Shown here: positions 24,531-59,764 of the stretch, piece by piece
How positions within the stretch are numbered: the first letter of the stretch is position 1
Layout of the letters: every line of letters starts with the position of its first letter
Origin: a virus
IMG/VR virus record: IMGVR_UViG_3300038468_000027
Location: 1 to 62,880 of that record
Strand: one strand, 5' to 3'
DNA length: 62,880 nt
Program-made: the position numbers and the translations under genes
The notes under the pieces: model-generated
What the model saw: only the letters and a program-made list of their open reading frames with translations
Told to the model about the DNA's origin: nothing
The model's database searches: none

Positions 24531-25013
24531 ATGAGCGTTGGACTTGGAAAAACTGCTGAGGCGGTACTCGTTACCTGCCTCATGAGAAGCGAGCGTCTTC
24601 AGCCCGCTTCCGGCACGACCGGAACTTTCTACTACAACGGCGCGCCGATCACCACGGCGTCGGGGTACGGCCTTGACACAAAGGACTTTGACGATGTCGT
24701 CATTGCCCTGAACATCGGGACCGTTCTGGGTGCGACCGTCACACTGTCGAACTCGATCTATGAGTCCGACTCCGACGATCCGACGGAAGCGACGTTGCTT
24801 TCAGGCGCTGCCTTCGATGACGTCGGCGTGAGCACTGATGAGATCCTTCAGGTCGCGTCGATCAACTGCAGCGAGACCAAGCGGTATCTGTTCCTGGTCA
24901 CGCAGATTGCCAGGCCGACCACGACCACGCCGACCGTCGACATGGGCGCGGTTGCAATCCTGAGTCGCGCGGACAGTCAGCCGACCAGCCAGACGCTTGA
25001 CTTCGATGTGTAG
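24531..25013 (+). CDS. Putative head decoration/structural protein with a Thr-rich patch
   Basis: Positioned after the capsid gene; ARPTTTTPTVD. Confidence 0.45.
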   Translation: MSVGLGKTAEAVLVTCLMRSERLQPASGTTGTFYYNGAPITTASGYGLDTKDFDDVVIALNIGTVLGATVTLSNSIYESDSDDPTEATLLSGAAFDDVGVSTDEILQVASINCSETKRYLFLVTQIARPTTTTPTVDMGAVAILSRADSQPTSQTLDFDV

Positions 25014-29561: not shown

Positions 29562-30634
29562 GACTGTTCAACGTCGATCAACACATCTCAGTCGTTGCCG
29601 ATCTGAAAAACGTCTGGCGCGACTTCGGCCACACGATAGAGGACTGGTGTCTGTCTGGTCACTCGTTTGTCTTTGGCCGCAAGGACGACCGGGACAAGAT
29701 ACCGGAGATGGCCGACGATGCTTGGTGCGCCGTGAGCAACGAGGACAGATGGGGCGAACTGGCGGAGAAATACCGGCCGGTCTGGGATCAGTACGACGGC
29801 TATGTCGTGACCTATCCCCCAGTATTCGCCCGCCTGTTCGAGACCTACGGAAAACCGATCATTGTGCACATTCCGATCCGGTTCGATTACGGGGTCCACG
29901 ACAAGCCTGAGCTTTTGGACAAGCTGATCACATGCCTTCGACAGAACAATGTTTATTTGTGCGCCAATAACAAATTCGACAAGGCATACGCCGAGGCATT
30001 TATCGGCAAGGAAGTGAGGCACATCCCAAGCCTCTGCCGGTATACCGGGATGCGGTACAATCCGACCGACCCGCGCATACTGGTTCAGGAGCATGTTCAC
30101 ATGGCGGAGCTTGACCGCAATATGTTTGTCAACAAGCACGTCGCCTTGAAGGCTGGATACCAATGGAGCGAGATGGCGAGATTCCGGGCCATCGCACATT
30201 TTCCGTATCAGATTTCTACCATGTCAATTCTCGAGCAGTACACGGCCCAGATACCGCTATTGTTCCCGACGAAAGACTTGATGCTGCGGCTGTGGAAAGA
30301 GAAGCGAGTCCTTGAGCACATGACTCACTATCCGCTGTGGCGGACGGCGCCAGGATCACAGCGCGCATATGCCCCAGGATGGGAACCGTCCACCGACCCC
30401 AACGCATACGACAAGGAGGAGGCCGTGTCCTACTGGTTGGACAAGGCCGACTATTACGACGCGGAGTTGATGCCTGATATCATGTACTTCGACAGCATGC
30501 AGGAGCTTCACGAGATGGCGGCAGAGGACATGCGACCCGCGCACTATGCCATGCTGGCAACGAACATCACGCGCCGGCAGTTGGTGTATCGAGAATGGGA
30601 ACAGGTATTTAAGGAGATCGCATGCGCTTCCTAA
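29558..30634 (+). CDS. Uncharacterised GT-B-like protein, tandem paralog 1
   Basis: About 45-50% identity by eye to 30622..31692 (M.F/L..DQHISV.AD.K..... PYQ.STMSI.EQYTA.IP.L.P). ATGA overlap. Confidence 0.45.
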   Translation: MRLFNVDQHISVVADLKNVWRDFGHTIEDWCLSGHSFVFGRKDDRDKIPEMADDAWCAVSNEDRWGELAEKYRPVWDQYDGYVVTYPPVFARLFETYGKPIIVHIPIRFDYGVHDKPELLDKLITCLRQNNVYLCANNKFDKAYAEAFIGKEVRHIPSLCRYTGMRYNPTDPRILVQEHVHMAELDRNMFVNKHVALKAGYQWSEMARFRAIAHFPYQISTMSILEQYTAQIPLLFPTKDLMLRLWKEKRVLEHMTHYPLWRTAPGSQRAYAPGWEPSTDPNAYDKEEAVSYWLDKADYYDAELMPDIMYFDSMQELHEMAAEDMRPAHYAMLATNITRRQLVYREWEQVFKEIACAS

Positions 30635-31692
30635 GCATCGATCAACACATCTCGGTAATCGCCGACATCAAGGCGATACTTCGCGCCATGGGCCACACGG
30701 TGGATGACCTGTGCCTTTCAGCGCACGCTCACATCATGGGCCGTGAGCAGGACCGCGCGCGCATTCCGGAACTGGCCGGCGACCTGTGGCAGAGAGTCAG
30801 CGACGAGAACCGATGGAATGAGGTTGCCGCGGCACATGCTGATGAGTGGAAGCAGTACGACGGATTCATCACCACCCATCCGCCGCTATTCGCGCGATTG
30901 TTCATTGACTTTGGGAAGCCTGTTGTATCGGTTATGTCCATTCGTGTCGATAACGGAGTTCACGACAAGCCGGACCTGCTCAATGCCTTACTCGATGATC
31001 TGCGCAAGCCCAATGTAATCCTATGCGCCAACAACAAGGTGGATGCCATGTACGGGCTGGCTTTGGTGCGAAAGCCGGTGGTGCATATCCCGAGCCTGTG
31101 CGCGTACACGGCAGCGCGGTACGAACCGCGTGATCACCGAGTATTGTCGTATGAGCACATCCCGGCGCCTGAGCTTGATCGATCGGTATTCGTGGAGAAG
31201 TCGGTCCTGGGCAAGGACTACAAGTGGCAGGACGTGGCGAACTTTCGGGCCGTGCTGCACCTCCCCTATCAGGTGAGTACCATGTCGATCTTCGAACAGT
31301 ACACGGCAGGCATCCCGATATTGGTCCCCGACATAGATCTGATGATGCGCCTGTGGTCAGAGGTCCGGGTGTTAAATCACTTGTCGAATGCGTCACTGTG
31401 GGGAACCGCGCCACAATGCGCCGTGGCCTATGACGAGGAAATCGCGCACCACGACCTTAACGACTATCGCAACGTTGACTCCGTAAGGTGGTGGGCAAAG
31501 TACGCAGACTACTATGATACCGAATGGATGCCGGATGTTATGCAGTTTGAGTCCTTTGGCGATCTTGAAATACTTGCCTCTGGAGAGCTTCGATACATCA
31601 GCGAGAACATGCGCGTCACCAACATCGAGCGACGGCAGCGGGTCTATGGTCTTTGGGAAGGCATCATGCGCAAGGCAAAGGACATGCTGTGA
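30622..31692 (+). CDS. Uncharacterised GT-B-like protein, tandem paralog 2
   Basis: See the previous entry. Confidence 0.45.
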   Translation: MRFLSIDQHISVIADIKAILRAMGHTVDDLCLSAHAHIMGREQDRARIPELAGDLWQRVSDENRWNEVAAAHADEWKQYDGFITTHPPLFARLFIDFGKPVVSVMSIRVDNGVHDKPDLLNALLDDLRKPNVILCANNKVDAMYGLALVRKPVVHIPSLCAYTAARYEPRDHRVLSYEHIPAPELDRSVFVEKSVLGKDYKWQDVANFRAVLHLPYQVSTMSIFEQYTAGIPILVPDIDLMMRLWSEVRVLNHLSNASLWGTAPQCAVAYDEEIAHHDLNDYRNVDSVRWWAKYADYYDTEWMPDVMQFESFGDLEILASGELRYISENMRVTNIERRQRVYGLWEGIMRKAKDML

Positions 31693-32549
31693 TCGGGGTT
31701 CACGTAGACGGCGACATCATCAACCGGGCGAAGCGAAACGGGCCGAACATTCGGGCTGTTCACTTGCTGCGCGAGTTGGACAAGATGGGTGTCGAGTATA
31801 CCAGAGATCGCACCATACAGGCAAAGAACGCCGCAATCCATCCCGGCGCGTTCAATGTTCTGTGCGACCAACTTCCCGCATGTACTCCGGTAGGACCGAA
31901 CATCGTTCATGAGGCGCGGGGACACACGGCGATCGGGTCGAAGTTTCACAATATCATCGTGCAGGGACAATGGGTCGCCGACTACTGGCGCTGGTATGAT
32001 CCTGAGATATGCAAAAACCTGACGTTTTACGTCTGGCCGAGCGGTGTTGACACAGAGATATACAAACCAGACGATACGCCAAAGGACATTGATTGCCTTT
32101 GGTACTGCAAGTACGTGAACCAGGACGCTCGGGTTGCGGTGAGTCAGGAACTTGCCAAGAAAAACCAGTCGTTTCGCGTTGTCGAGTACGGGCAATACGA
32201 GCAGGCTGAGATGGTTGCCGTTGCTGCGCGGTCGCGGTACTGCGTGTATAGTTCGTGCTGCGAGAAGTCTCCACATGCACTACTGGAGATCATGTCAATG
32301 GGCCTTCCGGCATTTGTGATTGACTCAAAGAAGTGGATTGGCGATGACAAGTTCGACCAGTGCACGTCCGCCCCGGACTGGTCTGATGAATGCGGCATCA
32401 AGTCCAGCAACGAACAGATCGACGACAGGTTCAGCACGTTCCTTGCCCGCTTGGATCAGTTCAAGCCGCGCGAGTACGTGTGCCGGGAAAGAACGATACG
32501 GCAGTTCGCGCAGCGGTTTCTGGATATCGTGGAGGCGTGCCATGTCTAA
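31689..32549 (+). CDS. GT-B (GT1/GT4-like) glycosyltransferase candidate
   Basis: SSCCEKSPHALLEIMSMGLPAFV resembles the E..(x7)E / EAMA.G.P region. GTG start overlaps the preceding stop. Confidence 0.5.
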   Translation: MIGVHVDGDIINRAKRNGPNIRAVHLLRELDKMGVEYTRDRTIQAKNAAIHPGAFNVLCDQLPACTPVGPNIVHEARGHTAIGSKFHNIIVQGQWVADYWRWYDPEICKNLTFYVWPSGVDTEIYKPDDTPKDIDCLWYCKYVNQDARVAVSQELAKKNQSFRVVEYGQYEQAEMVAVAARSRYCVYSSCCEKSPHALLEIMSMGLPAFVIDSKKWIGDDKFDQCTSAPDWSDECGIKSSNEQIDDRFSTFLARLDQFKPREYVCRERTIRQFAQRFLDIVEACHV

Positions 32550-33477
32550 GATGCGCGTCTTGGGATTCCCCTACTACCCGAACAGCGAATCAGGATCCGC
32601 GCGCATGCGGTTCTGGGCGCGGTTAGCAGCAATTGCCGAACTGATTGCGCTCAAGATCTTCGAGATCAGCGACGATCCCGGAGACTTCGACGTGGTCTAT
32701 TTGCAAAAAAAGTGCGACGCCGTGTCAATAGAATTGTGTGAACGGGCAGCGAAGTGCGGCGTACCGATAGTCTATGACTTCGACGACGCATTCGGCACGT
32801 TTGTCTCCCAAGAACTCGGAGTGCAGATGCTTGCGCGCGCCGACGCCGTAGTGACAGATACTCGATTCAAGGTTGACGCATACGGAAAGTATTCGCGTAG
32901 TCGCATGAGGGTCATTCCTGACGGCCTCGACTACTATGATAATTGGTTTGACATTACACCAAAGAACGAAGTTCGATCGGCCTGCACGTTTGGCTGGGAC
33001 ATCAACGTCGAGGCAGCGACCCCGTACATGCTCGCGGCAAGGCAGAATCTTGACGGGCCAATGTCGTATATCAGCAACAAAACGCAACCGGCCTATGAAG
33101 CAGCCGGCGTGAAGTTCTATAAGTGGCAGCAGGCTGACTTTTTGGCGAATCTGACAGCGCATGATTGTGCGATAATCTGTCACGGCGACAGCATCCATGA
33201 CCGCATGAGATGCACGAATCGCTTTCTTACCGCTGCGTTCTCCGGACTGTTGCCGATACCGCGGGATTCCATCGAATATGCGGAAATCGCGCTGCACCTC
33301 GGGGTTCCATTTTTATGCGCCCGCACGCCCGCGCATGTACCGAAGATCATTTCCGAGTACGGGTCACGGCGGGCGGAAATCATCACGGCGTTGCGTCCGA
33401 AGATCTGGCAGGAGTTCAATCCGCGCGTGGGCGGTGAAAAGCTATACGATGTCATGCGAGGAGTGTGTCGAACATGA
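32542..33477 (+). CDS. Hypothetical protein, possibly GT-B-like
   Basis: GGAGG upstream of ATG 32542; Rossmann-like alternation, with no firm motif. Confidence 0.4.
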   Translation: MSKMRVLGFPYYPNSESGSARMRFWARLAAIAELIALKIFEISDDPGDFDVVYLQKKCDAVSIELCERAAKCGVPIVYDFDDAFGTFVSQELGVQMLARADAVVTDTRFKVDAYGKYSRSRMRVIPDGLDYYDNWFDITPKNEVRSACTFGWDINVEAATPYMLAARQNLDGPMSYISNKTQPAYEAAGVKFYKWQQADFLANLTAHDCAIICHGDSIHDRMRCTNRFLTAAFSGLLPIPRDSIEYAEIALHLGVPFLCARTPAHVPKIISEYGSRRAEIITALRPKIWQEFNPRVGGEKLYDVMRGVCRT

Positions 33478-34580
33478 TACCGGTTTTCTCCAACACCCTC
33501 GGTCAGGAAGAACTCGTCGCAGTCGGCCGAGTAATGGCATCGCGTTGGCTTGGTGTCGGCCAGGAATGCGCGGCATTCGAGAGGGAACTCGCGGCCTATT
33601 GGAAAACGGACACGGTTTTGCTGCACAACTCATGCACATCGGCGACGTACAACGCGGTGAAGGCCCTTGGAGTCCGTGAGTTCAACGAGATCATCATCAC
33701 CACAGTCGGATTCGTGGCGACCCTCTCCGCCGTCCTGGACCTGGGCGCGGAGCCGGTATTCGCCGACGTGGATCCGCGCACCCTCAACATCCTGCCGTCC
33801 GAGATCAAGCGTCTACGGACCCACAAGACTCGGGCCGTGATCGTTTTGCACTACGGCGGGCACCCGGCGCCGATAGATGACATACTGGATGCCGCCCAGG
33901 GTATCCCGGTGATCGAGGACGCCGCCAACGCCCCTGCCTCTACGCACGCGGGGCGGGCCTGTGGTACGATCGGGGCCGCAGGGGTATGGAGCTTCGACGC
34001 GATGAAGATACTGTCCTGTGGCGACGGAGGGGCCTTGAGGATAGCCCCTGAGTACGTGGACCGGGCTCGGCGCCTGCGGTATCTGGGGCTGGACGAGAGC
34101 GGCACGACCGGCATGGCAAAGGCGGGATCCGGGGCGGATCGCTGGTGGGAGTACAATCTGACCGAGCCGGCCGGCCGGCATGTGTCCAATGACCTGTGCG
34201 CCGCCATTGGGCGCGAACAACTCCGGAAGCTGCCGGCATTCGTTGTCAGGCGCCGGGCGATCTGGGACACCTACCAGCGCGAACTCACGGGTATGGGCGA
34301 CCTACAGACGCCCCCGGAGCCAATGGACGGTTGTACGTCCAGCTACTACCTGTATTGGGTCCAGACCTCACGCCGGGACGCTTTGGCCGCACATCTCAAA
34401 GGTAGGGGCATTTACACCACCTACCGGTATCATCCGCTGCACCGGGCGTGGCGATATCACTGCGAGTTGACCAACTCGGAATCGGCATCGGCGCGAACGC
34501 TCAACATCCCGCTTCACCAGAACCTAACTGACGACGATGTGGGCATGATCGTTGAGGCTATATGGGAGTTCTACCGATGA
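33474..34580 (+). CDS. DegT/DnrJ/EryC1/StrS-family PLP-dependent sugar aminotransferase
   Basis: MIPVFSNTLGQEEL..., VIEDAANA, and SFDAMKIL (the PLP lysine context). Confidence 0.85.
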   Translation: MIPVFSNTLGQEELVAVGRVMASRWLGVGQECAAFERELAAYWKTDTVLLHNSCTSATYNAVKALGVREFNEIIITTVGFVATLSAVLDLGAEPVFADVDPRTLNILPSEIKRLRTHKTRAVIVLHYGGHPAPIDDILDAAQGIPVIEDAANAPASTHAGRACGTIGAAGVWSFDAMKILSCGDGGALRIAPEYVDRARRLRYLGLDESGTTGMAKAGSGADRWWEYNLTEPAGRHVSNDLCAAIGREQLRKLPAFVVRRRAIWDTYQRELTGMGDLQTPPEPMDGCTSSYYLYWVQTSRRDALAAHLKGRGIYTTYRYHPLHRAWRYHCELTNSESASARTLNIPLHQNLTDDDVGMIVEAIWEFYR

Positions 34581-34876
34581 GCATGCGCGACCACAATCAC
34601 ATGCTGACTATCTGCGAGGTCTTGCGCTGTATCAATGATCGGGTGCAGAGCAATGACCCAAACTCGGTTATGATCCGAGACATGCTGGCCCTGGCAGAAC
34701 GCATGGGCAAAAGCATGATGGAAAAGCTGCACAGCTACAGCGAACTGGCAGACCCTGTGTGGTGGGAGAAGAACCCGGAGTACGGGAAGCAACTCACGCG
34801 CACGGTTAGAGAGTATCGTATAGGTGATGCCGACGCCGCAGCGCGGGCGCTGGCACTACTGCGAGGTGAAAGATGA
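34577..34876 (+). CDS. Hypothetical protein (99 aa)
   Basis: ATGA overlap on both sides. Confidence 0.55.
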   Translation: MSMRDHNHMLTICEVLRCINDRVQSNDPNSVMIRDMLALAERMGKSMMEKLHSYSELADPVWWEKNPEYGKQLTRTVREYRIGDADAAARALALLRGER

Positions 34877-35427
34877 AGGCATACGTGGACTGCGGCGCGT
34901 TCCGTGGGCGCACCATAGATCGGTTCCTGAGCAAGCGCGAAGACCGCGACGAGTTCCGCGTGTGGGCATTCGAGTGTAACCCGTTGCTGGAGTCCGTAGA
35001 CTACGGGCCGCGTGTGACCAAGATTAGGAAAGCGGTATGGACTACCGACGAGGCGCTTCATCTCTACGTGTGTCCGTCAAACGTCGATAGTGAAGGAGCG
35101 TCATTGCACCGGGAGAAAACCACCGGCGAACTCGACCTGGCAAACCCGGTTCTGGTTGGCGGCATTGATTTCAGCAAGTGGGTGTCGTCAACGTTCAACT
35201 CGTTCGACATGCTCATCGTCAAAATGAACATCGAGGGCGCGGAATACGACGTGCTTCCGAAGATGGTCTGGGATAAATCGATCGAATTGATATCGGAGCT
35301 GCATGTGCAGTGGCACTGGCAAAAGTTGGGCATGGTTCAAGCGGCACACGAGCAGGTGCGCAGCATGGTACACGCCGCGTGTCCTGGAATCGTGTATGAC
35401 AACAACGATTCATGGGAGTCCCTGTGA
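34873..35427 (+). CDS. FkbM-family methyltransferase
   Basis: YVDCGAFRG...VWAFECNP ... IVKMNIEGAEYDVLPKM. Confidence 0.7.
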   Translation: MKAYVDCGAFRGRTIDRFLSKREDRDEFRVWAFECNPLLESVDYGPRVTKIRKAVWTTDEALHLYVCPSNVDSEGASLHREKTTGELDLANPVLVGGIDFSKWVSSTFNSFDMLIVKMNIEGAEYDVLPKMVWDKSIELISELHVQWHWQKLGMVQAAHEQVRSMVHAACPGIVYDNNDSWESL

Positions 35428-36065
35428 TTGACTTTCTTGCGGTCACTATTTGTGTCGGCGACTTTCTCTACCAGGAGTATGCACACCTGGCTCTGAAAGC
35501 ACAGAGCAAGTATTGGGGACACTTTAGGATACCATTCGAAGTATGCACGGAGCACTTCGAGGAGATGCGCGGCACGTCTCCGTCATGGCAGCGGGTGGTC
35601 ATGCACGAGCATTACGACGCTAGGTTCATTCTCGTACACGGTCTCGACATGCTCCCCTGCAATCTCAAGTATGACATCCGAGACTTTCTCATGATAGATC
35701 AAGTCAACATGGCGACGGACTGCAGTGTGATCGGATGCGACCCGGAAGCGCATACCTTTCCGCATTTCAGGTACAACGCGGACATGATCGGGTATCCGCG
35801 GACGATGGCGCCGTTCTTCCGCAGCGTCTGGGATAAGTACCGGGACGATCCGAAGTACAAGGACACCTTCGAGCAATACTGCCTTAACAAAGAACTTCAC
35901 GAGCAGCGGGTATACGTCAACGAAATACCAAACTGTTTCAACCGGTTCTTCTATCCTGGCATCGACTACTCTCATACGGCCTTTTGCCATTACACGAATT
36001 ACATGGGCAGTCACCAGAAGACGGAATACATCGTCAATCATCACCCCAAGGAGATGATCGAATGA
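35424..36065 (+). CDS. Hypothetical protein (possibly nucleotide-sugar transferase-like)
   Basis: GGGAG upstream of GTG 35424; no firm motif. Confidence 0.45.
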   Translation: MIDFLAVTICVGDFLYQEYAHLALKAQSKYWGHFRIPFEVCTEHFEEMRGTSPSWQRVVMHEHYDARFILVHGLDMLPCNLKYDIRDFLMIDQVNMATDCSVIGCDPEAHTFPHFRYNADMIGYPRTMAPFFRSVWDKYRDDPKYKDTFEQYCLNKELHEQRVYVNEIPNCFNRFFYPGIDYSHTAFCHYTNYMGSHQKTEYIVNHHPKEMIE

Positions 36066-36964
36066 AGACCGCCCGGTTCAACTCAGTTGCCAAGTTGGCC
36101 ATGCGGCCGGAGTTCCGAGAGTATGTGCGTACCGGCATTTGCACACCGGTCAATGTCGAGATATCTCCAGTCGGCCACTGCAATTCAACCTGCTGGTATT
36201 GCCTATACAAGACGAAACGGTATTCGGGAATAATGGACATAACCATGGCGCTGGCGCTAATTGACGAGTTGCAGAGCATGGGGGTTCCGGCGCTTACCTG
36301 GTCAGGCTGCGGAGAGCCGACGCTACATCCTCAGTTCTCGACAATGGTCAAGCGTGCGGCGGCATTGAACCAGGGAATGTTTACTAATGCATTATTGTAT
36401 CCCGAATACGATCCGTCTCATTTTGACTGGATACGGGTAACAGTGGTGCCGGGCCGCGCGCTGAATCTGGACAATCTACGAAAACTTCGGGAGGCCAAGA
36501 CTCTCGGGCTGTGCTGCAATGTCGGTCCGGATGATGATGATGAGATATGCAAAACGCTCGACGCTGCAAAGAAAATCGGGGCCGATTATGTGCACGTACG
36601 CCCGGTTCTTTTGACCGAAGGGCAGTCGTGGGAAGTGCGCCGGCCAACCATCGACGATCCGCTGTTGGTGTATGACGAGGGGAAATTCTCAGATCCTTAC
36701 TGTGAGCGCAACTATCGGGAATGCCGCGGCTTTCACTTCTCGCCCTTCGTCTGGTTTGACGGAGAGGTCACGATCTGCGCGTATCTCAAGGGCAATCCGG
36801 CATACAGTCTTGGGAACCTTCGAAACACGTCGTTTAACAAAATCATGATGACCGCCATGGACTTCGCGCCGGTGATAAGAGATTGCCAGGTCAACTGCAA
36901 AAACCACGAGGCCAACGAACTCACTAACGCCGCGATGAAGATTCGGGATCCGAACTTTGTATGA
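36062..36964 (+). CDS. Radical SAM enzyme
   Basis: CNSTCWYC (CxxxCxxC) and SGCGEPTL SAM-binding motif. ATGA overlap. Confidence 0.8.
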   Translation: MKTARFNSVAKLAMRPEFREYVRTGICTPVNVEISPVGHCNSTCWYCLYKTKRYSGIMDITMALALIDELQSMGVPALTWSGCGEPTLHPQFSTMVKRAAALNQGMFTNALLYPEYDPSHFDWIRVTVVPGRALNLDNLRKLREAKTLGLCCNVGPDDDDEICKTLDAAKKIGADYVHVRPVLLTEGQSWEVRRPTIDDPLLVYDEGKFSDPYCERNYRECRGFHFSPFVWFDGEVTICAYLKGNPAYSLGNLRNTSFNKIMMTAMDFAPVIRDCQVNCKNHEANELTNAAMKIRDPNFV

Positions 36965-37695
36965 AAACCTGGACACCCAATATCCGCGTGCTTGAACTGT
37001 GCATCACCTATCGGTGCAATGTGAAGTGCGACAACTGTTCGAACCTGTGCACCCAGGCTCCGATGGATGATAGTGGAGACCTGACGTATGATGAGATCGA
37101 GTCGATGATACGCGAGTCCGCTGACTGCGGGTATCAATGGGGACAAATCTCGCTGCACGGCGGGGAACCTCTTTTGCATCCTGAGGTATTGGCGATCGGG
37201 CACCTACTCGTGGACTACCGGAGGGTGCACAGTCCCGGCTTGGCCTTGCAGGCCTTGACCAATTGGAGCACGGAGAAGATACGGGTTGTCGGCGACTCGC
37301 TGCGGTCGATGGGGATTAATCTCGGAATCAGCGAGAAGCATGTGCGCAACCAAATGGCGAACGGATCACCGATACCATACGTTCCGGTCAATGAGTCGCC
37401 GGAGGACCTTGGTCTATCACACGACGGTGGATGCTTTCAGACGGAGAACTGCGGGATCTGCCGCAACTATCTGGGATTCTGGCCGTGTTCTCCGATGGCC
37501 GCTGCCGCTCGGGTATTCGGGTATACTACTCCGATTCTGCGCGTGAATGATATCGCGGTTGATGGAATGCGCGATCTGTTGCCGATGCATTGTAAGCACT
37601 GCGGATTCTCGATGCCTGACCGACCGCGGGTCATAGACCAGATTTCGACAAAGACGTGGACGGAAGGATTCAAACAATACCAGGAGGTCGCGTGA
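36961..37695 (+). CDS. Radical SAM enzyme with Cys-rich (SPASM/twitch-like?) C-terminus
   Basis: CNVKCDNC, HGGEPLL, and C-terminal GGCFQTENCGICRNY...CS...CKHCG. Confidence 0.75.
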   Translation: MKTWTPNIRVLELCITYRCNVKCDNCSNLCTQAPMDDSGDLTYDEIESMIRESADCGYQWGQISLHGGEPLLHPEVLAIGHLLVDYRRVHSPGLALQALTNWSTEKIRVVGDSLRSMGINLGISEKHVRNQMANGSPIPYVPVNESPEDLGLSHDGGCFQTENCGICRNYLGFWPCSPMAAAARVFGYTTPILRVNDIAVDGMRDLLPMHCKHCGFSMPDRPRVIDQISTKTWTEGFKQYQEVA

Positions 37696-38867
37696 GTACG
37701 CTTGCGCTCAATATCATCGTCGGTGCTGGAGAATCGGCAGAGTTGTATCATTGCCTGTCCACCTTCCGCGCGCGTGAGACGTTTGATGAAATCGTGATAT
37801 GCCAGACCGCAACGGACGATGCGGTGAAAGCCGTGTGTGATGACTTCGGCGCAAAGGTCGTGACGTTCGAGTGGAAAACGCCGGAGCATCCTTTCGGAGA
37901 CTTCGCGGGCGCGCGCAACACAGCACTCCACGCTACCACCAGCGATTACGTGATGTGGCTTGACGCTGACGACATGTGCCTTGAGCAGTATCAGGAAAAG
38001 TTGATCACCGTTCGTGACATAGTGAGGGACGACAAAAACAGCGAGGTCGATGCGTACTTCATGCGGTACGACATTATCTCCGAGATCGACGGCACTCCGA
38101 CAACCGTTTTCTGGAGAGATCGGATATTCAAGCGCGGTCCGCGCTTCCGATGGGAACGGGCGGTGCATGAGTTCTCGTGCCGGGACTGGACCAACATCGT
38201 GCATGGCAAGATCAACAACATGGCGGTCACGCACGAGCCGCAGAAGCCCAATTACGTCTCTGCAATGCGGAATGTCGCCATCCTTGAACATGAGTACAAA
38301 GTCAAGAAGGATATGTCGCACGAGACGCGATACTTCCTTGGGCGTGATTTGCTGTGCTGCGGTCGAGAGGCGGAGGGGCTTGCGTTGTTCGAGGAATTGC
38401 TCTGCGATCAAGAGGCGTCACCGGAGAACATGTATCTGATGTGCATCACCGCTGCGTTTTATATGGCCTATGGCGCTCACATCACGCGGCCTGGCATTGG
38501 GGACGTAGTCGAGACCGCGCTGACAGATGCGGAACGGTGGGCGAGGTTGTCTCTTGGCATGGACAATCGATATGCCGAGCCCTATGTGATTCTGGGTGAC
38601 GTATACATGAAGCGTGGTCTTGTGGATGCGGCGGAACGCATGTACTCCATTGCGCTGAAAAAGAAACTCAACGCCGGGACGTTGCAGAACGTGCCGTTTT
38701 ATGAGGAGGTTCCAGCGGAGAGGTTAAGTGATATTTACATCATGCGAAACCAACTCGAAAAGGCACTATGGTACAACTCGCGAAGCATGGCGCACAATCC
38801 TGGATGCGAATACTGCAAATCCATGCGAAAAAAAATGCTCGAAGTGCTTGTGTCCAAGTGTGACTGA
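37692..38867 (+). CDS. GT2 glycosyltransferase with C-terminal TPR-like domain (SunS-like architecture)
   Basis: FDEIVICQTATDDAV ... FAGARNTAL..TSDYVMWLDADD ... RWERAVHE ... then helical repeats. Collinear with my recollection of SunS-type peptide glycosyltransferases. Confidence 0.65.
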   Translation: MSTLALNIIVGAGESAELYHCLSTFRARETFDEIVICQTATDDAVKAVCDDFGAKVVTFEWKTPEHPFGDFAGARNTALHATTSDYVMWLDADDMCLEQYQEKLITVRDIVRDDKNSEVDAYFMRYDIISEIDGTPTTVFWRDRIFKRGPRFRWERAVHEFSCRDWTNIVHGKINNMAVTHEPQKPNYVSAMRNVAILEHEYKVKKDMSHETRYFLGRDLLCCGREAEGLALFEELLCDQEASPENMYLMCITAAFYMAYGAHITRPGIGDVVETALTDAERWARLSLGMDNRYAEPYVILGDVYMKRGLVDAAERMYSIALKKKLNAGTLQNVPFYEEVPAERLSDIYIMRNQLEKALWYNSRSMAHNPGCEYCKSMRKKMLEVLVSKCD

Positions 38868-38884: not shown

Positions 38885-39064
38885 ATGGAATCCATCTGCG
38901 AGGAATGTCTCCAACACAGCGGAATCGAGGGGCGCATGAAACGGGCCGAAGCTGACGTGCAGGCGATATGGCGGTCAATCGACTCCATGAAGGCGTGGGT
39001 GATCGCCGGCATGGGGTCGATGGTGGGAACCTTTCTGGTGTTGGCACTCAACAAGATTTTCTGA
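38885..39064 (+). CDS. 59-aa protein with C-terminal TM (holin/antiholin candidate; not in the ORF track)
   Basis: GGGAG upstream of ATG 38885; WVIAGMGSMVGTFLVLAL. Confidence 0.45.
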   Translation: MESICEECLQHSGIEGRMKRAEADVQAIWRSIDSMKAWVIAGMGSMVGTFLVLALNKIF

Positions 39065-39074
39065 GGAGGCAAGT

Positions 39075-39260
39075 ATGGCAAATAGCATGAGGAAAAACGC
39101 GGTGAAGGGCACAGTCGCCGGGATTGCGGCAACCATCGCAACGTGCGCCGTGGCTTTCATTTCGAAGCTCGACTCCGCTCAGAAGGCCGCGTTGGTGCCG
39201 GTGATCGCGGCTGGAATCGTGGCGCTGTACGACGCCATCAAGCATAGGGGCAAGAAGTGA
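39075..39260 (+). CDS. Holin candidate (2 TM, basic C-terminus)
   Basis: GAGGAGG upstream; VAGIAATIATCAVAFI and LVPVIAAGIVALY; ends HRGKK. Confidence 0.55.
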   Translation: MANSMRKNAVKGTVAGIAATIATCAVAFISKLDSAQKAALVPVIAAGIVALYDAIKHRGKK

Positions 39261-39691
39261 CACCGCGAGAACTCTTTGTCACCTTCATGCGAAACAGTGC
39301 CGGGCTGCCGTACATCTTCGGCGGGAACGGTCCGGAGACGTACGACTGTTCCGGTGTGGTCTGCGCGGCTCTGCGGGCGGCCGGGGTACACATCGGGGAC
39401 CACAGCGCTCAGGACATCTACGCCCTCTGGAAGGACCGCACCGTGCCGGAGTATTCGCGCGAGGGGCAACTGTTTTTTTACCGGGACGCACCCGCCGGTC
39501 CCGTGACTCACGTCATGGCCGGCATCCGGTATTGGGGCAAGGGCCGGGGGTGGCTGGTGGGCGCGCGCGGGGGCGGGCACACGACGTTGACCGTAGACCT
39601 GGCCTGGGCGGCCAAGGCGTGCGTGGATCTGGTGCGGAGCGATTACTGGCAGGACGCCCGGGTGGCGATCTGCGATCCGTGGGACGATTAA
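39257..39691 (+). CDS. NlpC/P60-family cell-wall hydrolase (endolysin)
   Basis: PYIFGGNGPETYDCSGVV catalytic Cys context, with a downstream His. Confidence 0.8.
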   Translation: MTPRELFVTFMRNSAGLPYIFGGNGPETYDCSGVVCAALRAAGVHIGDHSAQDIYALWKDRTVPEYSREGQLFFYRDAPAGPVTHVMAGIRYWGKGRGWLVGARGGGHTTLTVDLAWAAKACVDLVRSDYWQDARVAICDPWDD

Positions 39692-39715: not shown

Positions 39716-40003
39716 ATGAAAGTCCAGTTCGTCACGAAACCCGATGCTGCCGGATTCGTTCGCGCCCATGTGGAGCTATCGAAGGACGAGGCGATTCCGC
39801 TGAAATATAAAGAGAAGGACTACACCGAGGAGCGTGCTTTGAAGGACGCAGAGGCATACGTCGTGGCAAGAGCAAAAGCGCAGGCTGACGAGGCGGCAAA
39901 GGTCGCGCTGGAATCGTCGTTGTCCTACAAGTTGGACAAGTTGACTGAGGAGTTCGGGGCTGCTGCTGTCAAGGCTGCGGTCGGCGTGAAGGAGATTGCG
40001 TAA
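39716..40003 (+). CDS. Hypothetical helical protein
   Basis: GGAGG upstream; Ala/Lys/Glu-rich. Confidence 0.55.
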   Translation: MKVQFVTKPDAAGFVRAHVELSKDEAIPLKYKEKDYTEERALKDAEAYVVARAKAQADEAAKVALESSLSYKLDKLTEEFGAAAVKAAVGVKEIA

Positions 40004-43000
40004 TGCCTTCCATTCTGCGCGTAGACTATCTCAACGGCTTGGACACGGTTGGTCGCACTGGAGGTGATTGGGGGGCGAACCTACTCAAGACGATTGACCG
40101 TGCTTCGACGCTGGCCGCCGCTGGTGATAGTGGGTACCTCGCCGTAACCCCCGAGGCGGACAGCGGGATCAATGCGACGTGGCCGACGCCTTCAGCAGCT
40201 TCACCCTCAGCGGCACGAAATGTGGCTGTTGATACATTCACGGGCAAGGTTGCGCTGATTACGGACTGCATCTCTACAAGTGGGTGGGTTGCCGATGCTG
40301 GTGGGGACGTGGTAGGCGCATTGACATACAACACGGCCAATACCAAATACGGTACTGGTGGAAAGCTTCGAATGACGTTCGATGCGGCCCCGCAAACCAA
40401 CAAGCTCCAAGCATATTGCCCCGTCGGTGGGGCTGGCGGACTTGATCTATCCGCATTTCAAGACCTTGAATGCTGGATTTCCTGCACTACAGGAACTATG
40501 CCAGCAACATCACTCGTGATAAAACTCTGCTCGGATGCCGCAGGCGCGACCCCGGTAGATACTCTCACCTTTTCAGAAGCAAGCGCAGGAACGAATCTAT
40601 TTCCGTTGTGTATTCGTAAAGGTTCAGCATTCGGCAATGCGATTAAGTCGATTGCGATCTATACAGGTGCGGTCGCTCCTGCTGGAGCAAGTGTCTGGAA
40701 CTTCGATTGCTTCTACGCGACCAACTGTCACACTGCTGGCAACCCCGGTCTATGCAAAATGCATAAGAAGCCCTTCCCTACACAGTGGGCCGCGACGACC
40801 ACTTACATTGTAAATGATATTCGCATGCCCACGTTTGCGAATGGATGCAACAAGCTATTCAAGGTGCAATCCATCACCACTGGTGTTTCTGGCGGCACGG
40901 AACCTTCTTGGTACAATGCGCGGCACCTCAATGACACGATTGTAGATGGCGGTGTGACTTGGGTTAATATTGGTTGGAATGAGGCATATATTCTCTGGAC
41001 CGTCAAAAGCTACAATGTTGCTGGCCTCACATTCGAGATTGATAACTCGGCTACAAATCTGGGCAATACCGGTCGAGGATATTGGGGAACCGCCGAGACG
41101 ACAGATCTTTACACCATTGAACCCTTGCGGCCTACCATGGCCGCTGCGTCTACGACGTTGGTGCAGAACACCGTCACTGCCGGAACGGATGGAGTCCCGG
41201 TATCGTGGCAGGGTGGAGTCAACACCTCGGATGTGGTAGTCGGAATTACCGTATTTGACGGAAGGAACTGCCTTGGATACGGAATCAGCGACCAGAAAGC
41301 GTTTCAGAACTGGAGAAACGTTTTCATGGTGCGATACACGTACGGCCTGTATATGTCCGTCAGCACTGGCAAACAGATAGTCGGTTGTGGTGGTTCATCG
41401 TGCAATGGATCACCAATTTATTCGGCCCCTGGGTTAACCAACGGGACATTTGGCTGGATCACGGTAGAGAACTGTGGCACAACAGACAGTAATTTTAATT
41501 GTGTTGTTGGGCTTTCCAGTTATGTCTATGGTATACTGTCCACGGGGGCATTGTACCGAGCATTTGGTCCAACGGGAACTAACTCAATAACGCGGGCGCT
41601 CATTGATGAAGTGGGGCTCTATAATTCAGTCCAGGGCCTTGTCAATACGGGTGAAGTATTGGTAAGCAATCTTGACACGGCGTATAATACCACGAGTGGC
41701 GCAGTGACCCCCGGGCAAGCTCTTCGTCTTGTAAATGCCACGATAGCTGAGGCAACTGAATTTGTGGGTATGGTACAAGGATATATTGCCTATTCATTCA
41801 ACCATGATGGATCGGCAGGGAACCACAAGATCTTTGCGCTTGGAGGTAACGCCAATTATACGAGCGCGACTCACCTTTGGACGTTGTATATAACATCGGC
41901 TGCCAAGACGACGACCTTGCCCATCCAGGTTCGCATCGGCCAAGTCTACTGCGACGTGGCGTCAGTCGCCTACACGGTCACGCTCCAGGTCACTCCGTCA
42001 GACGCTGCGATTTTTGGACGACTCCGCATCCTCGCCCAATCCCTTCCTGGAATCACGGCGGACCAGACGGCTACTTCCAGCGGAACAGGATTACAGACTC
42101 TCACCTTGACGTTCACCCCCACGGCAACTGGGGACATCGACGTGTTCCTCGAAATCTATGTGTCCAGCGGAACCACGTACAATCTGACTTGGGATGAGGA
42201 CTCGCTGTCCTGCGTGCGTGGGGCGCTCTCTACGCGAGTGTGGTCGGGGGTGTTTCTAAATGCGCTGCCGTCCACGCTGGCAATGCCGGATGCGGATGTG
42301 TTCCCGGCGAACGACAAGGTACTCAACACCGAACTGGCATGGGGCCACGATGGCACAGGGTACGGCCCCGGTACGGCGGTGGCGGAGGCGCACGCGGCAA
42401 AGATCCGGTCTATCTCCCCGGCCACGGATGTCATCACCGGGGGGCGTACTGTCGTCCTCCGAGTGTCCGGTGCTGGCGCGACTCAATCCAGCGGAACACT
42501 GACTTTTGGCGGTACGGCCGCGACTATCGTCTCGTGGTCCGATACGCTTATCACCTGTCTCGCTCCTGCGCACGCGGCTGGAACCGTTGATGTGGTGCTC
42601 ACCAATAGCAGCGCAGACACCGACACCTATACCGGTGGGTTCACCTATTACGACCCGGCCACGGCAGACAGTGTTCGCACGAAACTTCGAGAGGCGGTCA
42701 AGTGGAACCTCGAACAGATCACTGAATCCAACGGCTACCGCAAGACCATCCGGGCCGTATACGACCCGCCGAAGAATATGGATCAGTTCGCGGAGTATCC
42801 GGCGGTGAATCTCAATTGGGGCGCGGAGACGCGTGGAAACGAGACCATTGCCGGCAACAACCCGCTTCTTGACCTGCGACTCCAAGTCCGCATCGATGTC
42901 TTCATGTCGGAGGTCAACGACATCCAATCAGAAGTAGACAAGGTGATTGCCGACGTTCAACAGCGATTTGGGACCTACTACTACATCCCGGAGAGCACAG

Positions 43001-43140
43001 GTGGTCAGTCGGCGTTCAACTGTTTGTATCTCGGAAGCGAGCCCTTTGGGACTGACAGCACAGTCCCTAACTGCGGCGTATCGATAGATCTTGAAGTGTG
43101 GTATCGTATCAATCTTGACGACCCGGCAACCATGCAATAA
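40003..43140 (+). CDS. 1045-aa structural protein: large N-terminal region, IPT/TIG Ig-like domain, tail-terminator-like C-terminal domain
   Basis: IPT/TIG-like segment ISPATDVITGGRTVVLRVSGAG...LTFGGTAATIVSWSDTLITCLAPAH..GTVDVVL (~42370..42630). The last ~165 aa have a gpU/DUF3168-like pattern and lie directly before the tube gene. Confidence 0.55.
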   Translation: MPSILRVDYLNGLDTVGRTGGDWGANLLKTIDRASTLAAAGDSGYLAVTPEADSGINATWPTPSAASPSAARNVAVDTFTGKVALITDCISTSGWVADAGGDVVGALTYNTANTKYGTGGKLRMTFDAAPQTNKLQAYCPVGGAGGLDLSAFQDLECWISCTTGTMPATSLVIKLCSDAAGATPVDTLTFSEASAGTNLFPLCIRKGSAFGNAIKSIAIYTGAVAPAGASVWNFDCFYATNCHTAGNPGLCKMHKKPFPTQWAATTTYIVNDIRMPTFANGCNKLFKVQSITTGVSGGTEPSWYNARHLNDTIVDGGVTWVNIGWNEAYILWTVKSYNVAGLTFEIDNSATNLGNTGRGYWGTAETTDLYTIEPLRPTMAAASTTLVQNTVTAGTDGVPVSWQGGVNTSDVVVGITVFDGRNCLGYGISDQKAFQNWRNVFMVRYTYGLYMSVSTGKQIVGCGGSSCNGSPIYSAPGLTNGTFGWITVENCGTTDSNFNCVVGLSSYVYGILSTGALYRAFGPTGTNSITRALIDEVGLYNSVQGLVNTGEVLVSNLDTAYNTTSGAVTPGQALRLVNATIAEATEFVGMVQGYIAYSFNHDGSAGNHKIFALGGNANYTSATHLWTLYITSAAKTTTLPIQVRIGQVYCDVASVAYTVTLQVTPSDAAIFGRLRILAQSLPGITADQTATSSGTGLQTLTLTFTPTATGDIDVFLEIYVSSGTTYNLTWDEDSLSCVRGALSTRVWSGVFLNALPSTLAMPDADVFPANDKVLNTELAWGHDGTGYGPGTAVAEAHAAKIRSISPATDVITGGRTVVLRVSGAGATQSSGTLTFGGTAATIVSWSDTLITCLAPAHAAGTVDVVLTNSSADTDTYTGGFTYYDPATADSVRTKLREAVKWNLEQITESNGYRKTIRAVYDPPKNMDQFAEYPAVNLNWGAETRGNETIAGNNPLLDLRLQVRIDVFMSEVNDIQSEVDKVIADVQQRFGTYYYIPESTGGQSAFNCLYLGSEPFGTDSTVPNCGVSIDLEVWYRINLDDPATMQ

Positions 43141-43153
43141 CAAAGGAGAAAGT

Positions 43154-44125
43154 ATGCCTCTCAGACTCATTGAACAGAAGCGGACGCTCGGCCTCAAGAT
43201 TGAGACCACGCCGTACACTGCGGAAACCCTCACCGTAAGCGACTATGACATTCAGGCGCGCGACATTTCCTACTCCCCCGAAGTCGAGATGTACCTGCGC
43301 AAGCTGGCGCGCGGGGACTACTCGCGCGATCCCTCTGTCCCCGGACGGCGCAAGTGTACCGTGTCCTTCAAGGTTGACATGCACCGCGGATCGGCAGCCG
43401 GAACCCCTCCGCAGTATTTCGACGCCCTACGCTGCTGCGCGCTCAAGCAGGTGGTCCACGGATCAACCGGAGTGTCTTTGATCACCGACGCCAATTACGA
43501 TCGCGTGCCGTGCACTATCGAGGTTGTAGAGCGGCAGGAAGGCGCAGCCCCGAACCAGCTTGTCACGAAGCTGCACGGATGCATGGGCAATGCCAAGCTG
43601 GTGTGCTCACAAACCGGACAGCCGATCGCTATCGAGTTCGAGTTCACCGGGGTCCTCAACACGCCCACGACCCGCGCATACGCTTCGATGATCACGCCGA
43701 CAGCGTTTGACACGGCAGTCCCGTCCGCCGTTCTGGCCGCAACCATTTGGCTCTACGGCACGGACCAGTATCTCGGGCAATTCAGCATCGATCTGGGGAA
43801 CGTGGTCGAGTTGTTCACGGACCCGTCGAAGACCCAGGGATACGAAGGCGCCCGAGTGGTTGACCGTCAGCCGATTCTCGAACTCGACCCGGACCTTCTC
43901 GTCACCTCCGACGTTGACCACTTAACGAATATGATCAACGCCACGACCGGCGCCCTGAGCGTGACCATCGGGCAGAATCTGTACATCAGCGCCCCGGCCT
44001 GCCAGATCGTTGACACCAACAAGCCCGGTTCGCGCGAGGGCCACGTGACGAATCAGCTTCGTCTCGAACTCAAGCGCAGCGCCGGAAACGATGAACTCAC
44101 CATCCGCCAAGGGAGCGTGTCGTAA
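43154..44125 (+). CDS. Major tail tube protein
   Basis: AAAGGAG upstream. Placed before the chaperone pair, with size and beta-rich composition consistent. Confidence 0.6.
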   Translation: MPLRLIEQKRTLGLKIETTPYTAETLTVSDYDIQARDISYSPEVEMYLRKLARGDYSRDPSVPGRRKCTVSFKVDMHRGSAAGTPPQYFDALRCCALKQVVHGSTGVSLITDANYDRVPCTIEVVERQEGAAPNQLVTKLHGCMGNAKLVCSQTGQPIAIEFEFTGVLNTPTTRAYASMITPTAFDTAVPSAVLAATIWLYGTDQYLGQFSIDLGNVVELFTDPSKTQGYEGARVVDRQPILELDPDLLVTSDVDHLTNMINATTGALSVTIGQNLYISAPACQIVDTNKPGSREGHVTNQLRLELKRSAGNDELTIRQGSVS

Positions 44126-59706: not shown

Positions 59707-59764
59707 CCGCTGTCTGCAATTTCGGTTTCTCTGGAATTGTAGGCGGCGCGAAGAAAGGGAGATT

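Follow-up and report, generated by a model that had tools for sequence, protein, structure and literature searches.

The window analyzed here is the whole 62,880-nucleotide stretch of IMG/VR record IMGVR_UViG_3300038468_000027, in which the initial annotation had described two radical-SAM genes (here rSAM1 and rSAM2) followed by a glycosyltransferase (GT) gene (here GT2-TPR). All three ORFs (36062-36964, 36961-37695, and 37692-38867) were found together with the motifs quoted for them, and Pfam domains agreed with the assignments (Radical_SAM in rSAM1 and rSAM2; Glycos_transf_2 and a weak TPR match in GT2-TPR). The described translational coupling is seen in 4-nt overlaps, the junctions of the three genes being ATGA, ATGA, and GTGA, and AGGAG-type ribosome-binding sites precede rSAM1 (36062) and GT2-TPR (37692). 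The three genes are the final ones of 15 successive genes (26211-38867), for which every overlap measures 4-40 nt and no transmembrane (TM) segment was predicted in any product. This set lies between the neck genes and the tail genes in a phage genome of 59,443 bp. Most likely, it is one late operon with tight overlaps throughout, a glycosylation island of approximately 12 kb in a tailed phage, of which the three genes form the 3' end. The features of the region are as follows:

26840-33477, + strand: upstream part of the island, encoding soluble proteins and conserved in relatives
26840-27502 and 27499-28989, + strand: paralogous 'IISFALWG' domains, the second also with a GT-like C-terminal part
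28974-29561, + strand: GT2 (Pfam GT2, 7.6e-9)
29558-30634 and 30622-31692, + strand: tandem paralogues, 50% identical
31653-32549 and 32542-33477, + strand: genes without family match
33465-34580, + strand: DegT/DnrJ/EryC1-family PLP-dependent sugar aminotransferase (Pfam, 1.3e-75)
34562-34876 (104 aa) and 35412-36065 (217 aa), + strand: two proteins without family match
34873-35427, + strand: FkbM-family methyltransferase (Pfam Methyltransf_21, 3.7e-5; TIGR01444, 1.8e-6, its 28.5 bits below the cutoff of 37.7)
36062-36964, + strand: rSAM1, radical-SAM enzyme of 300 aa whose C-terminal part is a twitch/partial-SPASM domain (Pfam Radical_SAM, 4e-9; SPASM; family alignment)
36961-37695, + strand: rSAM2, small twitch-like radical-SAM enzyme of 244 aa from a GT-coupled family (Pfam Radical_SAM and Fer4_12; alignment; AF2/Foldseek)
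37692-38867, + strand: GT2-TPR, 391 aa, GT-A domain with a helical TPR-like domain C-terminal to it (Pfam GT2, 1.3e-9)
38885-39691, + strand: lysis-like cassette between GT and tail genes (two small membrane proteins of 59 and 61 aa; NlpC/P60 peptidase)
40003-43140, + strand: tail-terminator-like protein, much extended at its N terminus and containing a TIG domain (TIG, 3.5e-13)
43151-44125, + strand: tail tube protein (Pfam Phage_tube_2)

Within the upstream part of the island (26840-33477), a match to the glycosyltransferase family phrog_14945 was obtained (1.6e-11). The DegT-family protein has PseC- and WecE-like NCBIfam matches, all of which lie under the curated cut-offs. The FkbM gene interrupts the gene pair for the 104-aa and 217-aa proteins, which had no match in Pfam, NCBIfam, PHROG, or PDB and whose genes co-occur with rSAM2 in relatives (co-occurrence matrix). 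The lysis-like cassette, recognized by TM prediction for the small proteins and by Pfam NLPC_P60 (3.8e-10), lies outside the glycosylation module. Beyond it lie the conserved downstream neighbors (40003-44125), which are candidate acceptors: the tail-terminator-like protein, whose match to Pfam Phage_tail_terminator_7 (6.4e-6) scored 26.3 bits with the cutoff at 27, and the tail tube protein.

GT2-TPR, which carries the motifs FDEIVICQTATDDAV, WLDADD, and RWERAVHE, had been proposed to be SunS-like in fold and domain order, and structural comparison bore this out. The top Foldseek matches of its AF2 model (pLDDT 94) were SunS (7MSN, 2e-16, TMq 0.60) and ThuS (7MSK, 7.5e-14), aligned at full length over approximately 400 columns, followed by a next tier of AvpGT, TarP, TarS, and WrtF (1e-8 to 1e-6). 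In a phmmer search against PDB, GmaR was the top match (E 8.7e-12; residues 10-161 of GT2-TPR aligned with 16-155 of 22AO), and SunS (3e-8) was also among the best. As modeled, the protein thus has a SunS/ThuS/GmaR-like fold composed of GT-A and TPR domains. Since SunS, ThuS, and GmaR all glycosylate polypeptides, a polypeptide acceptor, as initially proposed, can reasonably be expected by analogy; for a TPR-containing GT2 enzyme, a non-protein acceptor is in principle conceivable as well. The glycocin S-glycosyltransferases SunS and ThuS (7MSN, 7MSP, 7MSK; TIGR04195) share the GT-A and helical TPR-like architecture (TMq approximately 0.6), their DxD (WLDADD / FIDADN) and VHE motifs align with those of GT2-TPR, and SunS is encoded by a prophage gene (SPbeta yolJ). 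However, identity amounts to only approximately 15% in the structural and 24% in the local sequence alignment. Membership in the SunS family itself (TIGR04195, cutoff 350) was ruled out by a score of 33.5 bits. In PHROG, the full-length protein matches phrog_13126 (4e-21), and approximately 60 homologues were found.

Nearly all related phages keep GT2-TPR, which is retained wherever an island is present, while the remaining island is variable, and the neck-to-tail position is common to the window and every island-bearing relative. In the relatives, GT2-TPR lies directly 5' of the tail-terminator and tail-tube genes, with the tail-tube gene less than 6 kb downstream in all 23 relatives with enough downstream sequence, and in a minimal relative (L346) it is the sole recognizable GT between neck and tail. 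The order rSAM1-rSAM2-GT2-TPR was seen again in three relatives (L003, L102, and L364; 35-51% amino-acid identity to the window proteins), with identical 4-nt overlaps in the gene calls of L003, and is not a chance arrangement. The radical-SAM genes, in turn, are optional passengers that assort independently: 14 of 22 relatives have none, 5 have only rSAM2, 1 has only rSAM1, and 2 have both. The DegT gene is limited to loci carrying rSAM2 (3/7, compared to 0/15 without rSAM2). No obvious glycosylation tail was seen on the related tube, terminator, or capsid proteins. Cys C96 of the tube protein is invariant in all 29 GT-bearing relatives but is uninformative on the acceptor, since a relative without the island (L360) has it too.

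The fold comparison and the gene order also bear on the nature of the acceptor. Polysaccharide GTs fit only the GT-A half of GT2-TPR (TMq 0.31-0.42), whereas SunS and ThuS fit its full length, which argues against remodeling of the host envelope, an explanation that we consider unlikely. It would have the island build or alter an LPS, teichoic acid, or capsule glycan, e.g., against superinfection, with lipid-linked or polymer acceptors and with GT2-TPR as a polysaccharide GT whose TPR domain serves protein-protein contacts. The many GTs in the island are in line with this, as are the second-tier fold matches to GTs of wall teichoic acid and O-antigen, prophage TarP among them, and an rSAM1 homologue (41% identical) in a cellular Wzx-type polysaccharide cluster (GT1/GT2/GT4, NTP-transferase, SDR epimerase, and Wzx genes). 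However, no membrane protein, flippase, polymerase, or initiating phosphoglycosyl transferase was found in the island, a scan of ten of the larger non-structural genes yielded no integrase match, and the island has its fixed place in the late structural operon beside tail genes in all island-bearing relatives.

GmaR, the flagellin O-GlcNAc transferase of Listeria (PDB 22AO, 637 aa; PMC9638930), likewise has an N-terminal GT2 domain followed by TPRs and acts on a large structural filament protein, but its linker and anti-repressor domains are missing from the 391-aa GT2-TPR. Its rank as best PDB sequence match, together with the role of TPR domains as general protein-binding modules (PMC9638930), would fit a GT that modifies a host flagellin, pilin, receptor, or defence protein during infection. 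A host acceptor of this kind nevertheless appears rather improbable, given that the gene is located in the late structural operon and not among early takeover genes, and that a hypervariable 12-kb island with multiple GTs better suits a displayed surface glycan. Furthermore, no flagellin was found near the fetched GT2-TPR loci by tblastn with an approximate Hag query sequence.

Both radical-SAM enzymes contain the CX3CX2C core (PF04055; invariant Cys triads). In rSAM1 (motifs CNSTCWYC and GCGEPTL), the family alignment revealed an invariant C40/C44/C47 triad as well as C221, C239 (CX12GX4C), C275, and C279, predicted to form a four-Cys auxiliary [4Fe-4S] site. With only these four extra invariant Cys, rSAM1 is twitch-like, compared to the 7 Cys (two auxiliary clusters) of a full SPASM domain. 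The public JGI call for rSAM1 begins at an internal Met (243 aa), and the CX3CX2C motif is therefore lost from it. The sequence match of rSAM1 to BtrN and SpeY is confined to the N-terminal core, and DegT-like genes lie near rSAM1-like genes in 9 of 71 other viral loci.

For rSAM2 (motifs CNVKCDNC and HGGEPLL), a C-terminal SPASM/twitch-like Cys cluster had been proposed. The cluster itself was confirmed by the family alignment, in which C158, C164, C176, C211, and C214 are invariant besides C19/C23/C26, and these five residues may likewise form an auxiliary [4Fe-4S] site. However, the SPASM signal was found in rSAM1 instead (PF13186, partial match, 24.3 bits with the gathering score at 21.5), while the SPASM/twitch HMM search of rSAM2 gave no match and TIGR04085 matched the C-terminal fragment of neither protein. 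An absence of auxiliary clusters, which the initial annotation had named as an argument against its own proposal, was not encountered, because both enzymes have conserved extra Cys; yet auxiliary clusters do not tell peptide from sugar radical-SAM enzymes.

The best full-length folds for the AF2 model of rSAM2 (pLDDT 95) were SpeY (7WZV, 5.7e-6, 291 columns) and BtrN (4M7S/4M7T, 6e-5), both of which are also among the best PDB sequence matches of the two radical-SAM enzymes. Both are twitch radical-SAM dehydrogenases of sugars or cyclitols, small in size and with a single auxiliary cluster ligated by Cys, and BtrN converts an amino-cyclitol alcohol to a ketone (PMC10337720). The model aligns with them over 225-295 columns, compared to a core of only approximately 110-160 columns for peptide maturases, but TM is only approximately 0.5, identity is 15-18%, and the C-terminal Cys spacing differs. 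Whereas BtrN and SpeY stem from aminoglycoside antibiotic pathways and not from phages or glycoprotein pathways, members of the rSAM2 family, which comprises 331 clusters at E<=1e-30, are typically fused or coupled to GTs: among 38 multidomain proteins that include rSAM2, 15 carry GT2, 1 is fused to GT1 (P0223), and further fusions involve GT25, Nucleotid_trans, GT_PLOD, NDP-sugar epimerase/dehydratase, and methyl- or sulfotransferase domains. RRE, peptidase, transporter, or other peptide-related domains were found in none of the 38 fusions scanned. The neighborhoods of cellular rSAM2 homologues (Desulfobacterales, Omnitrophota) are heterogeneous and uninformative. The coupling of rSAM2 to the GT, as pointed out initially, is seen in the translational overlap and, moreover, in a single fused rSAM2::GT2-TPR ORF from one phage of the same lineage; this fusion, found in one assembled contig, could be an artefact, since with the usual 4-nt overlap of the two genes a 1-nt assembly error would be enough to join them.

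These data do not support the suggestion that the three genes form a RiPP-like sub-module with peptide-maturase radical-SAM enzymes. Under this hypothesis, rSAM1 and rSAM2 would modify the same polypeptide that the GT glycosylates, e.g., by anSME-like Ser/Cys oxidation, thioether formation, or epimerization, so that the three proteins jointly mature a peptide or protein. While the SunS/ThuS-like GT, the auxiliary Cys clusters of both radical-SAM enzymes, the tight gene coupling with one rSAM2-GT fusion, and weak NCBIfam/PDB profile matches including the maturases WgkB, PapB, YydG, CteB, and DynA are compatible with it, those maturase matches occur only in the common radical-SAM core and far under the family cut-offs. 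Furthermore, the GT occurs without radical-SAM genes in most relatives (14/22), with independent assortment, and the fusion partners of rSAM2 and the polysaccharide cluster of the rSAM1 homologue point to sugars. No precursor peptide, leader peptidase, C39 peptidase, or ABC exporter was found at the locus, no RRE/PqqD domain was matched by Pfam among the genes, and no conserved small ORF was found near the three genes across related loci, with the small ORFs adjoining the GT (59 and 61 aa) being absent in all of them. In comparison with glycocin clusters, the window lacks a glycocin precursor, a SunT-type exporter/peptidase, a Bdb oxidoreductase, and an immunity gene, and GT2-TPR is instead adjoined by sugar enzymes, the lysis cassette, and tail genes of a phage structural operon. 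The case for the RiPP reading is therefore weak, and we regard it as quite improbable; the second option of the initial annotation, radical chemistry with the sugar as its target, has more support.

Phages are also known to glycosylate DNA bases, and some hypermodification pathways employ PLP and radical-SAM enzymes, as in thymidine hypermodification. The island could accordingly attach or tailor sugars on modified phage DNA bases, but this is highly improbable: no hydroxymethylase, kinase, or other base-modification match was obtained in the same ten larger non-structural genes, DegT-family enzymes use keto-sugars, the nearest relatives of the GT are peptide/protein GTs, and the island sits in the structural module.

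We therefore favor, if only with somewhat better than even confidence, glycosylation of a phage protein with radical-SAM tailoring of the sugar, encoded by an island in the late structural operon. Gene structure, folds, synteny, presence/absence pattern, and fusions were observed; which acceptor and sugar are involved, and precisely which radical reaction takes place at which stage (nucleotide sugar or post-transfer), we infer as follows. GT2-TPR, the constant element of the island, would by homology be a cytoplasmic, protein-directed GT of the SunS/ThuS/GmaR type that uses a nucleotide sugar and a DxD/Mn site to transfer the first sugar onto Cys, Ser, or Thr. Its helical TPR domain would hold the acceptor polypeptide, probably a phage (virion) protein made concurrently, and the remaining soluble GTs of the island may lengthen the glycan. 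As optional sugar-tailoring enzymes, rSAM1 and rSAM2 would each contain a single SAM cluster plus a single auxiliary cluster bound by Cys and could, in a BtrN/SpeY-like step, abstract a hydrogen from a sugar C-H, oxidizing a secondary alcohol to a ketone or causing epimerization. The resulting ketone might then be aminated by the DegT aminotransferase of the island, and the FkbM enzyme could add a methyl group. BtrN partners a DegT-family aminotransferase in butirosin biosynthesis, to which the DegT-family gene of the island may be compared.

Regarding virion glycosylation, Freeman et al. are said to have reported in Cell Host Microbe in 2023 that mycobacteriophage-encoded GTs, together with methyltransferases, glycosylate capsid and tail-tube subunits, and in some mycobacteriophages the glycosylation genes reportedly lie among structural genes. 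We know of no radical-SAM or aminotransferase genes described in mycobacteriophage virion glycosylation, and tblastn with GT2-TPR gave no mycobacteriophage match. The GTs of the window likewise lie within or beside the structural module, a position expected for a phage virion glycosylation system. Furthermore, GT2-TPR proteins occur in other phages and giant viruses (BFVD models; Pseudomonas phage PaBG); radical-SAM coupling has not been reported for these proteins, which are annotated merely as 'beta-1,4-glycosyltransferase' or similar and have the same two-domain fold (TMq 0.73-0.79).

The window begins with an exact copy of its own end (1-3437 duplicating 59444-62880; 3,437 bp), and thus consists of one 59,443-bp genome unit plus the duplicate. 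The latter reflects overlap in a circular assembly or else a long direct terminal repeat. It is a complete phage genome, with nearly all genes carried on the + strand. Between the neck and tail genes, 15 consecutive genes overlapping by 4-40 nt each form a 12-kb island (26211-38867). At its end, two radical-SAM genes (rSAM1 and rSAM2) precede a gene for a glycosyltransferase (GT) with a GT-A domain and a helical TPR-like domain (GT2-TPR).

Features of the window, by position
17876-19162, large terminase
19162-21309, portal
23039-24457, major capsid protein
26840-27502, 27499-28989 and 28974-29561, soluble GT or GT-like proteins
29558-30634 (29522-30634 as PDB query) and 30622-31692, tandem paralogues of unassigned family, 50% identical
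33465-34580, DegT-family sugar aminotransferase (Pfam, 1e-75)
36062-36964, rSAM1, 300 aa, Pfam Radical_SAM
36961-37695, rSAM2, 244 aa, Pfam Radical_SAM
37692-38867, GT2-TPR, 391 aa, Pfam Glycos_transf_2 and weak TPR
38885-39691, lysis-like cassette between island and tail genes (two small membrane proteins and an NlpC/P60 peptidase)
40003-43140, TIG and tail-terminator-like protein, 1045 aa
43151-44125, tail tube protein

The genes at 26840-27502 and 27499-28989 constitute a second pair of tandem paralogues (48% identical). Both pairs lack Pfam, NCBIfam or PDB matches, are kept in most related islands, and probably represent new glycosyltransferase-like families. The island furthermore encodes an FkbM-family methyltransferase and two proteins of no assigned family, one of them at 35412-36065; PDB sequence searches with the latter and with the 29522-30634 protein returned no match. 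No GenBank phage matched the island in megablast, and a single-sequence scan of IMG/VR gave only one distant match, so that alignment-based scans were needed.

The three open reading frames that had been proposed to form a RiPP-like, peptide-directed sub-module were found at exactly the positions listed, with every motif quoted for them. Their junctions are ATGA, ATGA and GTGA overlaps, AGGAG-type ribosome-binding sites precede 36062 and 37692, and the coupling between rSAM2 and the GT is real. The JGI gene call for rSAM1 takes an internal Met as its start (243 aa), which leaves out the CX3CX2C motif; public annotation may therefore miss a complete radical-SAM enzyme.

The description of the GT as SunS-like is correct at the level of the fold. 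An AlphaFold model built from 33 homologues (pLDDT 94) has SunS (2e-16, TMq 0.60) and ThuS (7.5e-14) as its best PDB fold matches over approximately 400 columns, followed at 1e-8 to 1e-6 by AvpGT, TarP, TarS, WrtF and cellulose/heparosan synthases, mostly in the GT-A half only. The two-domain fold is common among uncharacterised proteins of phages and giant viruses (TMq 0.73-0.79; phrog_13126). The best NCBIfam match is SunS (TIGR04195), scoring 33.5 bits where the cutoff is 350, and judged by sequence GT2-TPR would not be counted as a member of the SunS family. Among PDB sequences, it matches GmaR best (8.7e-12), ahead of SunS (3e-8) and ThuS (1e-3). GmaR, whose domain layout has been described (PMC9638930), is the flagellin O-GlcNAc transferase of Listeria; a neighbourhood test found no flagellin match near the fetched GT2-TPR loci. 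Since SunS, ThuS and GmaR all glycosylate polypeptides, we infer a polypeptide acceptor for GT2-TPR as well.

The radical-SAM enzymes point in a different direction from peptide maturation. The SPASM-like signal that the initial annotation assigned to the second enzyme belongs to the first: rSAM1 matches PF13186 (24.3 bits versus a gathering score of 21.5) with the motif CX12GX4C, while rSAM2 has no SPASM or TIGR04085 match, although its family alignment shows five invariant C-terminal cysteines. In the rSAM1 family, the invariant cysteines are C40/C44/C47 together with C221, C239, C275 and C279, a set that reads as a one-cluster, twitch-like pattern. An rSAM1 homologue (41% identical) lies within a cellular polysaccharide gene cluster encoding GT1/GT2/GT4 enzymes, a nucleotidyltransferase, an SDR epimerase, a Wzx flippase, and PMT_2 and B12-radical-SAM proteins. 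In 9 of 71 other viral loci, a DegT-like gene lies no more than 8 kb from a distantly related rSAM1-like gene. The rSAM1 and rSAM2 families are related in the radical-SAM core only (85 columns in hhalign of the two family alignments), and profile searches of PDB sequences with either family recovered only the common N-terminal core, with peptide and sugar enzymes mixed.

For rSAM2, the family model (pLDDT 95) has its best PDB fold matches among twitch radical-SAM dehydrogenases, namely SpeY (7WZV; 5.7e-6, 291 columns) and BtrN (6e-5), although these matches are modest (TM approximately 0.5). The name SpeY was taken from the Foldseek description of 7WZV, for which a literature search returned nothing. 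ChlB, anSME, CteB and SuiB match the model over approximately 100-160 core columns only. When 1.84 billion representative proteins were searched with the family profile, 331 rSAM2 clusters (50% identity) were obtained at E<=1e-30, and about a quarter of the best 150 matches were multidomain proteins. Scanning 38 of the latter revealed a GT2 domain in 15; other partners were GT25, Nucleotid_trans, PLOD-GT, NDP-sugar epimerase/dehydratase, methyltransferase, sulfotransferase and phosphatase, whereas no peptide-recognition, peptidase or transporter domain was detected in these 38 fusions. In individual proteins, the rSAM2 domain is joined to GT1 (P0223) or to a BtrN-like radical-SAM/SPASM domain (P0201). 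A protein of 638 aa from a phage of the window's lineage (P0175; 1271-3187 of the related locus L364) is an in-frame fusion of rSAM2 and GT2-TPR, its GT part being 35% identical to that of the window, in the gene order rSAM1, fusion, terminator, tube. Its junction lies at about 1990-2030 of L364. The fusion was found on one assembled contig and could be genuine, or could stem from an assembly error of 1 nt where the two genes normally overlap by 4 nt.

To establish the gene content of relatives, homologue loci were fetched and searched with the window proteins by tblastn. GT2-TPR has at least approximately 60 homologues (30-47% identity), many on 45-64-kb contigs, and is nearly always located directly upstream of the terminator-like and tail-tube genes: the tube gene follows within 6 kb in all 23 non-redundant loci whose downstream sequence is long enough, and in 19 of them it lies no more than 2.5 kb away. 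Upstream, gene content differs between relatives. Twenty-two non-redundant loci include 2 kb or more of upstream sequence; of these, 14 lack any radical-SAM gene, 5 carry rSAM2 only, 1 carries rSAM1 only and 2 carry both; the full trio is found in four genomes once L364 and the window are added. DegT is confined to rSAM2-bearing relatives (3/7 versus 0/15). In one relative (L346), GT2-TPR is the sole recognisable GT between neck and tail, and at least two relatives (L349 and L360) lack any island. These counts mark GT2-TPR as the core of the island and the radical-SAM genes as accessory cargo, a pattern not to be expected of a dedicated peptide-maturation trio. The RiPP-like reading thus retains the GT type and the rSAM2-GT coupling in its favor, but the radical-SAM enzymes look like carbohydrate enzymes and the rest of a RiPP system is absent.

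The genes downstream of the GT do not supply a precursor peptide. The small open reading frames considered for this role are conserved nowhere, contain transmembrane segments and lie upstream of the NlpC/P60 gene, and are therefore assigned to a lysis cassette. One of its small membrane proteins has an N-terminal CEEC motif. The position of the cassette between island and tail genes is unusual; an NlpC/P60 homologue is similarly placed in three related loci (L026-L028). In the 40003-43140 product, the last ~155 residues match the 158-159-aa terminator-like protein of relatives and are preceded by a TIG domain, with an ~800-aa extension of unassigned fold that is absent from relatives; this looks like a terminator that has been fused or decorated. 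In the tube protein, residue 96 (about 43436-43438) is Cys in 29 of 29 non-redundant GT-bearing relatives and Val in the island-less L349. C96 is a possible S-glycosylation site, but the island-less L360 has the Cys as well.

The three-gene feature is thus real and conserved, and combines known kinds of component: a phage glycosylation island, a SunS/GmaR-like protein GT and twitch radical-SAM sugar enzymes. Of the models considered, the one with the most support is a late-expressed, cytoplasmic glycosylation pathway, in which GT2-TPR would place a sugar on a polypeptide, the remaining island GTs would lengthen the glycan, and the radical-SAM enzymes, DegT and FkbM would tailor the sugar, first by oxidising an alcohol or by epimerisation and then by amination and methylation. 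The polypeptide is most likely a structural protein of the phage, candidates being the tube, TIG/terminator and capsid proteins and the product of 24531-25013. Host-envelope remodelling, DNA glycosylation or modification of a protein other than a virion protein are less likely, given that the island proteins are all soluble, with no transmembrane segment predicted in any of them, and that the island occupies a constant place within the structural operon. Furthermore, a scan of ten larger non-structural genes gave no integrase or base-modification match. A more specific proposal, which we put forward tentatively and regard as rather improbable, is that rSAM2 represents a large, uncharacterised GT-coupled, twitch-like family with many members fused to GT2 or GT1 domains, in this lineage docked to or once fused with the protein GT, which may oxidise or epimerise the sugar at or just after its transfer to a virion protein, possibly the tail tube via S-linked Cys96; such chemistry would have no described precedent among viral glycoproteins.

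To our knowledge, experimental proof of virion glycosylation in phages is limited to a few actinobacteriophages, in which the modification influences recognition by the immune system. Here, a lineage of ~45-64-kb environmental phages devotes up to a fifth of the genome to a hypervariable glycosylation island, whose constant part is a peptide/protein-type GT and which carries radical-SAM sugar chemistry otherwise known from aminoglycoside antibiotic pathways. The three-gene feature is open to direct testing and, if confirmed, would offer a tractable model for unusual phage-particle glycans (amino, methylated, possibly S-linked) and a first functional handle on a widespread GT-coupled radical-SAM family. 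Within an incomplete coverage of the literature, we found no published description of this family or of radical-SAM enzymes in phage glycosylation islands. Confirmation would also advise caution in labelling phage DegT and radical-SAM pairs "antibiotic synthesis" or "peptide maturase". In the cyanomyovirus S-SCSM2R, adjacent genes for a DegT/AHBA_syn-like aminotransferase, a radical-SAM "maturase" and an amidinotransferase (ORF305-309) were read as antibiotic synthesis genes (PMC12801897); by analogy with the island, these genes may serve to tailor a sugar.

Outside this lineage, rSAM2 homologues of huge phages adjoin either another radical-SAM gene, split thiamine-diphosphate enzymes and methyltransferases, or GT2/GT1/GNT-I genes. 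Full-length cellular homologues (L173-L199; 28-36% identity) come mostly from Desulfobacterales and some from Omnitrophota, a concentration that hints at anoxic habitats or hosts for the family. Their neighbourhoods are heterogeneous (GT2, MoaA, HD, GDSL lipase, histidine kinases) and allow no functional inference. A further homologue (43%) is located on a 68-kb contig binned as Phycisphaerales. On a 199-kb phage-like contig (L011), the radical-SAM gene preceding the rSAM2 homologue (7881-10004; 707 aa) contains Hint/intein domains and appears to be intein-interrupted; the near-identical L012 has a 391-aa version at the same position.
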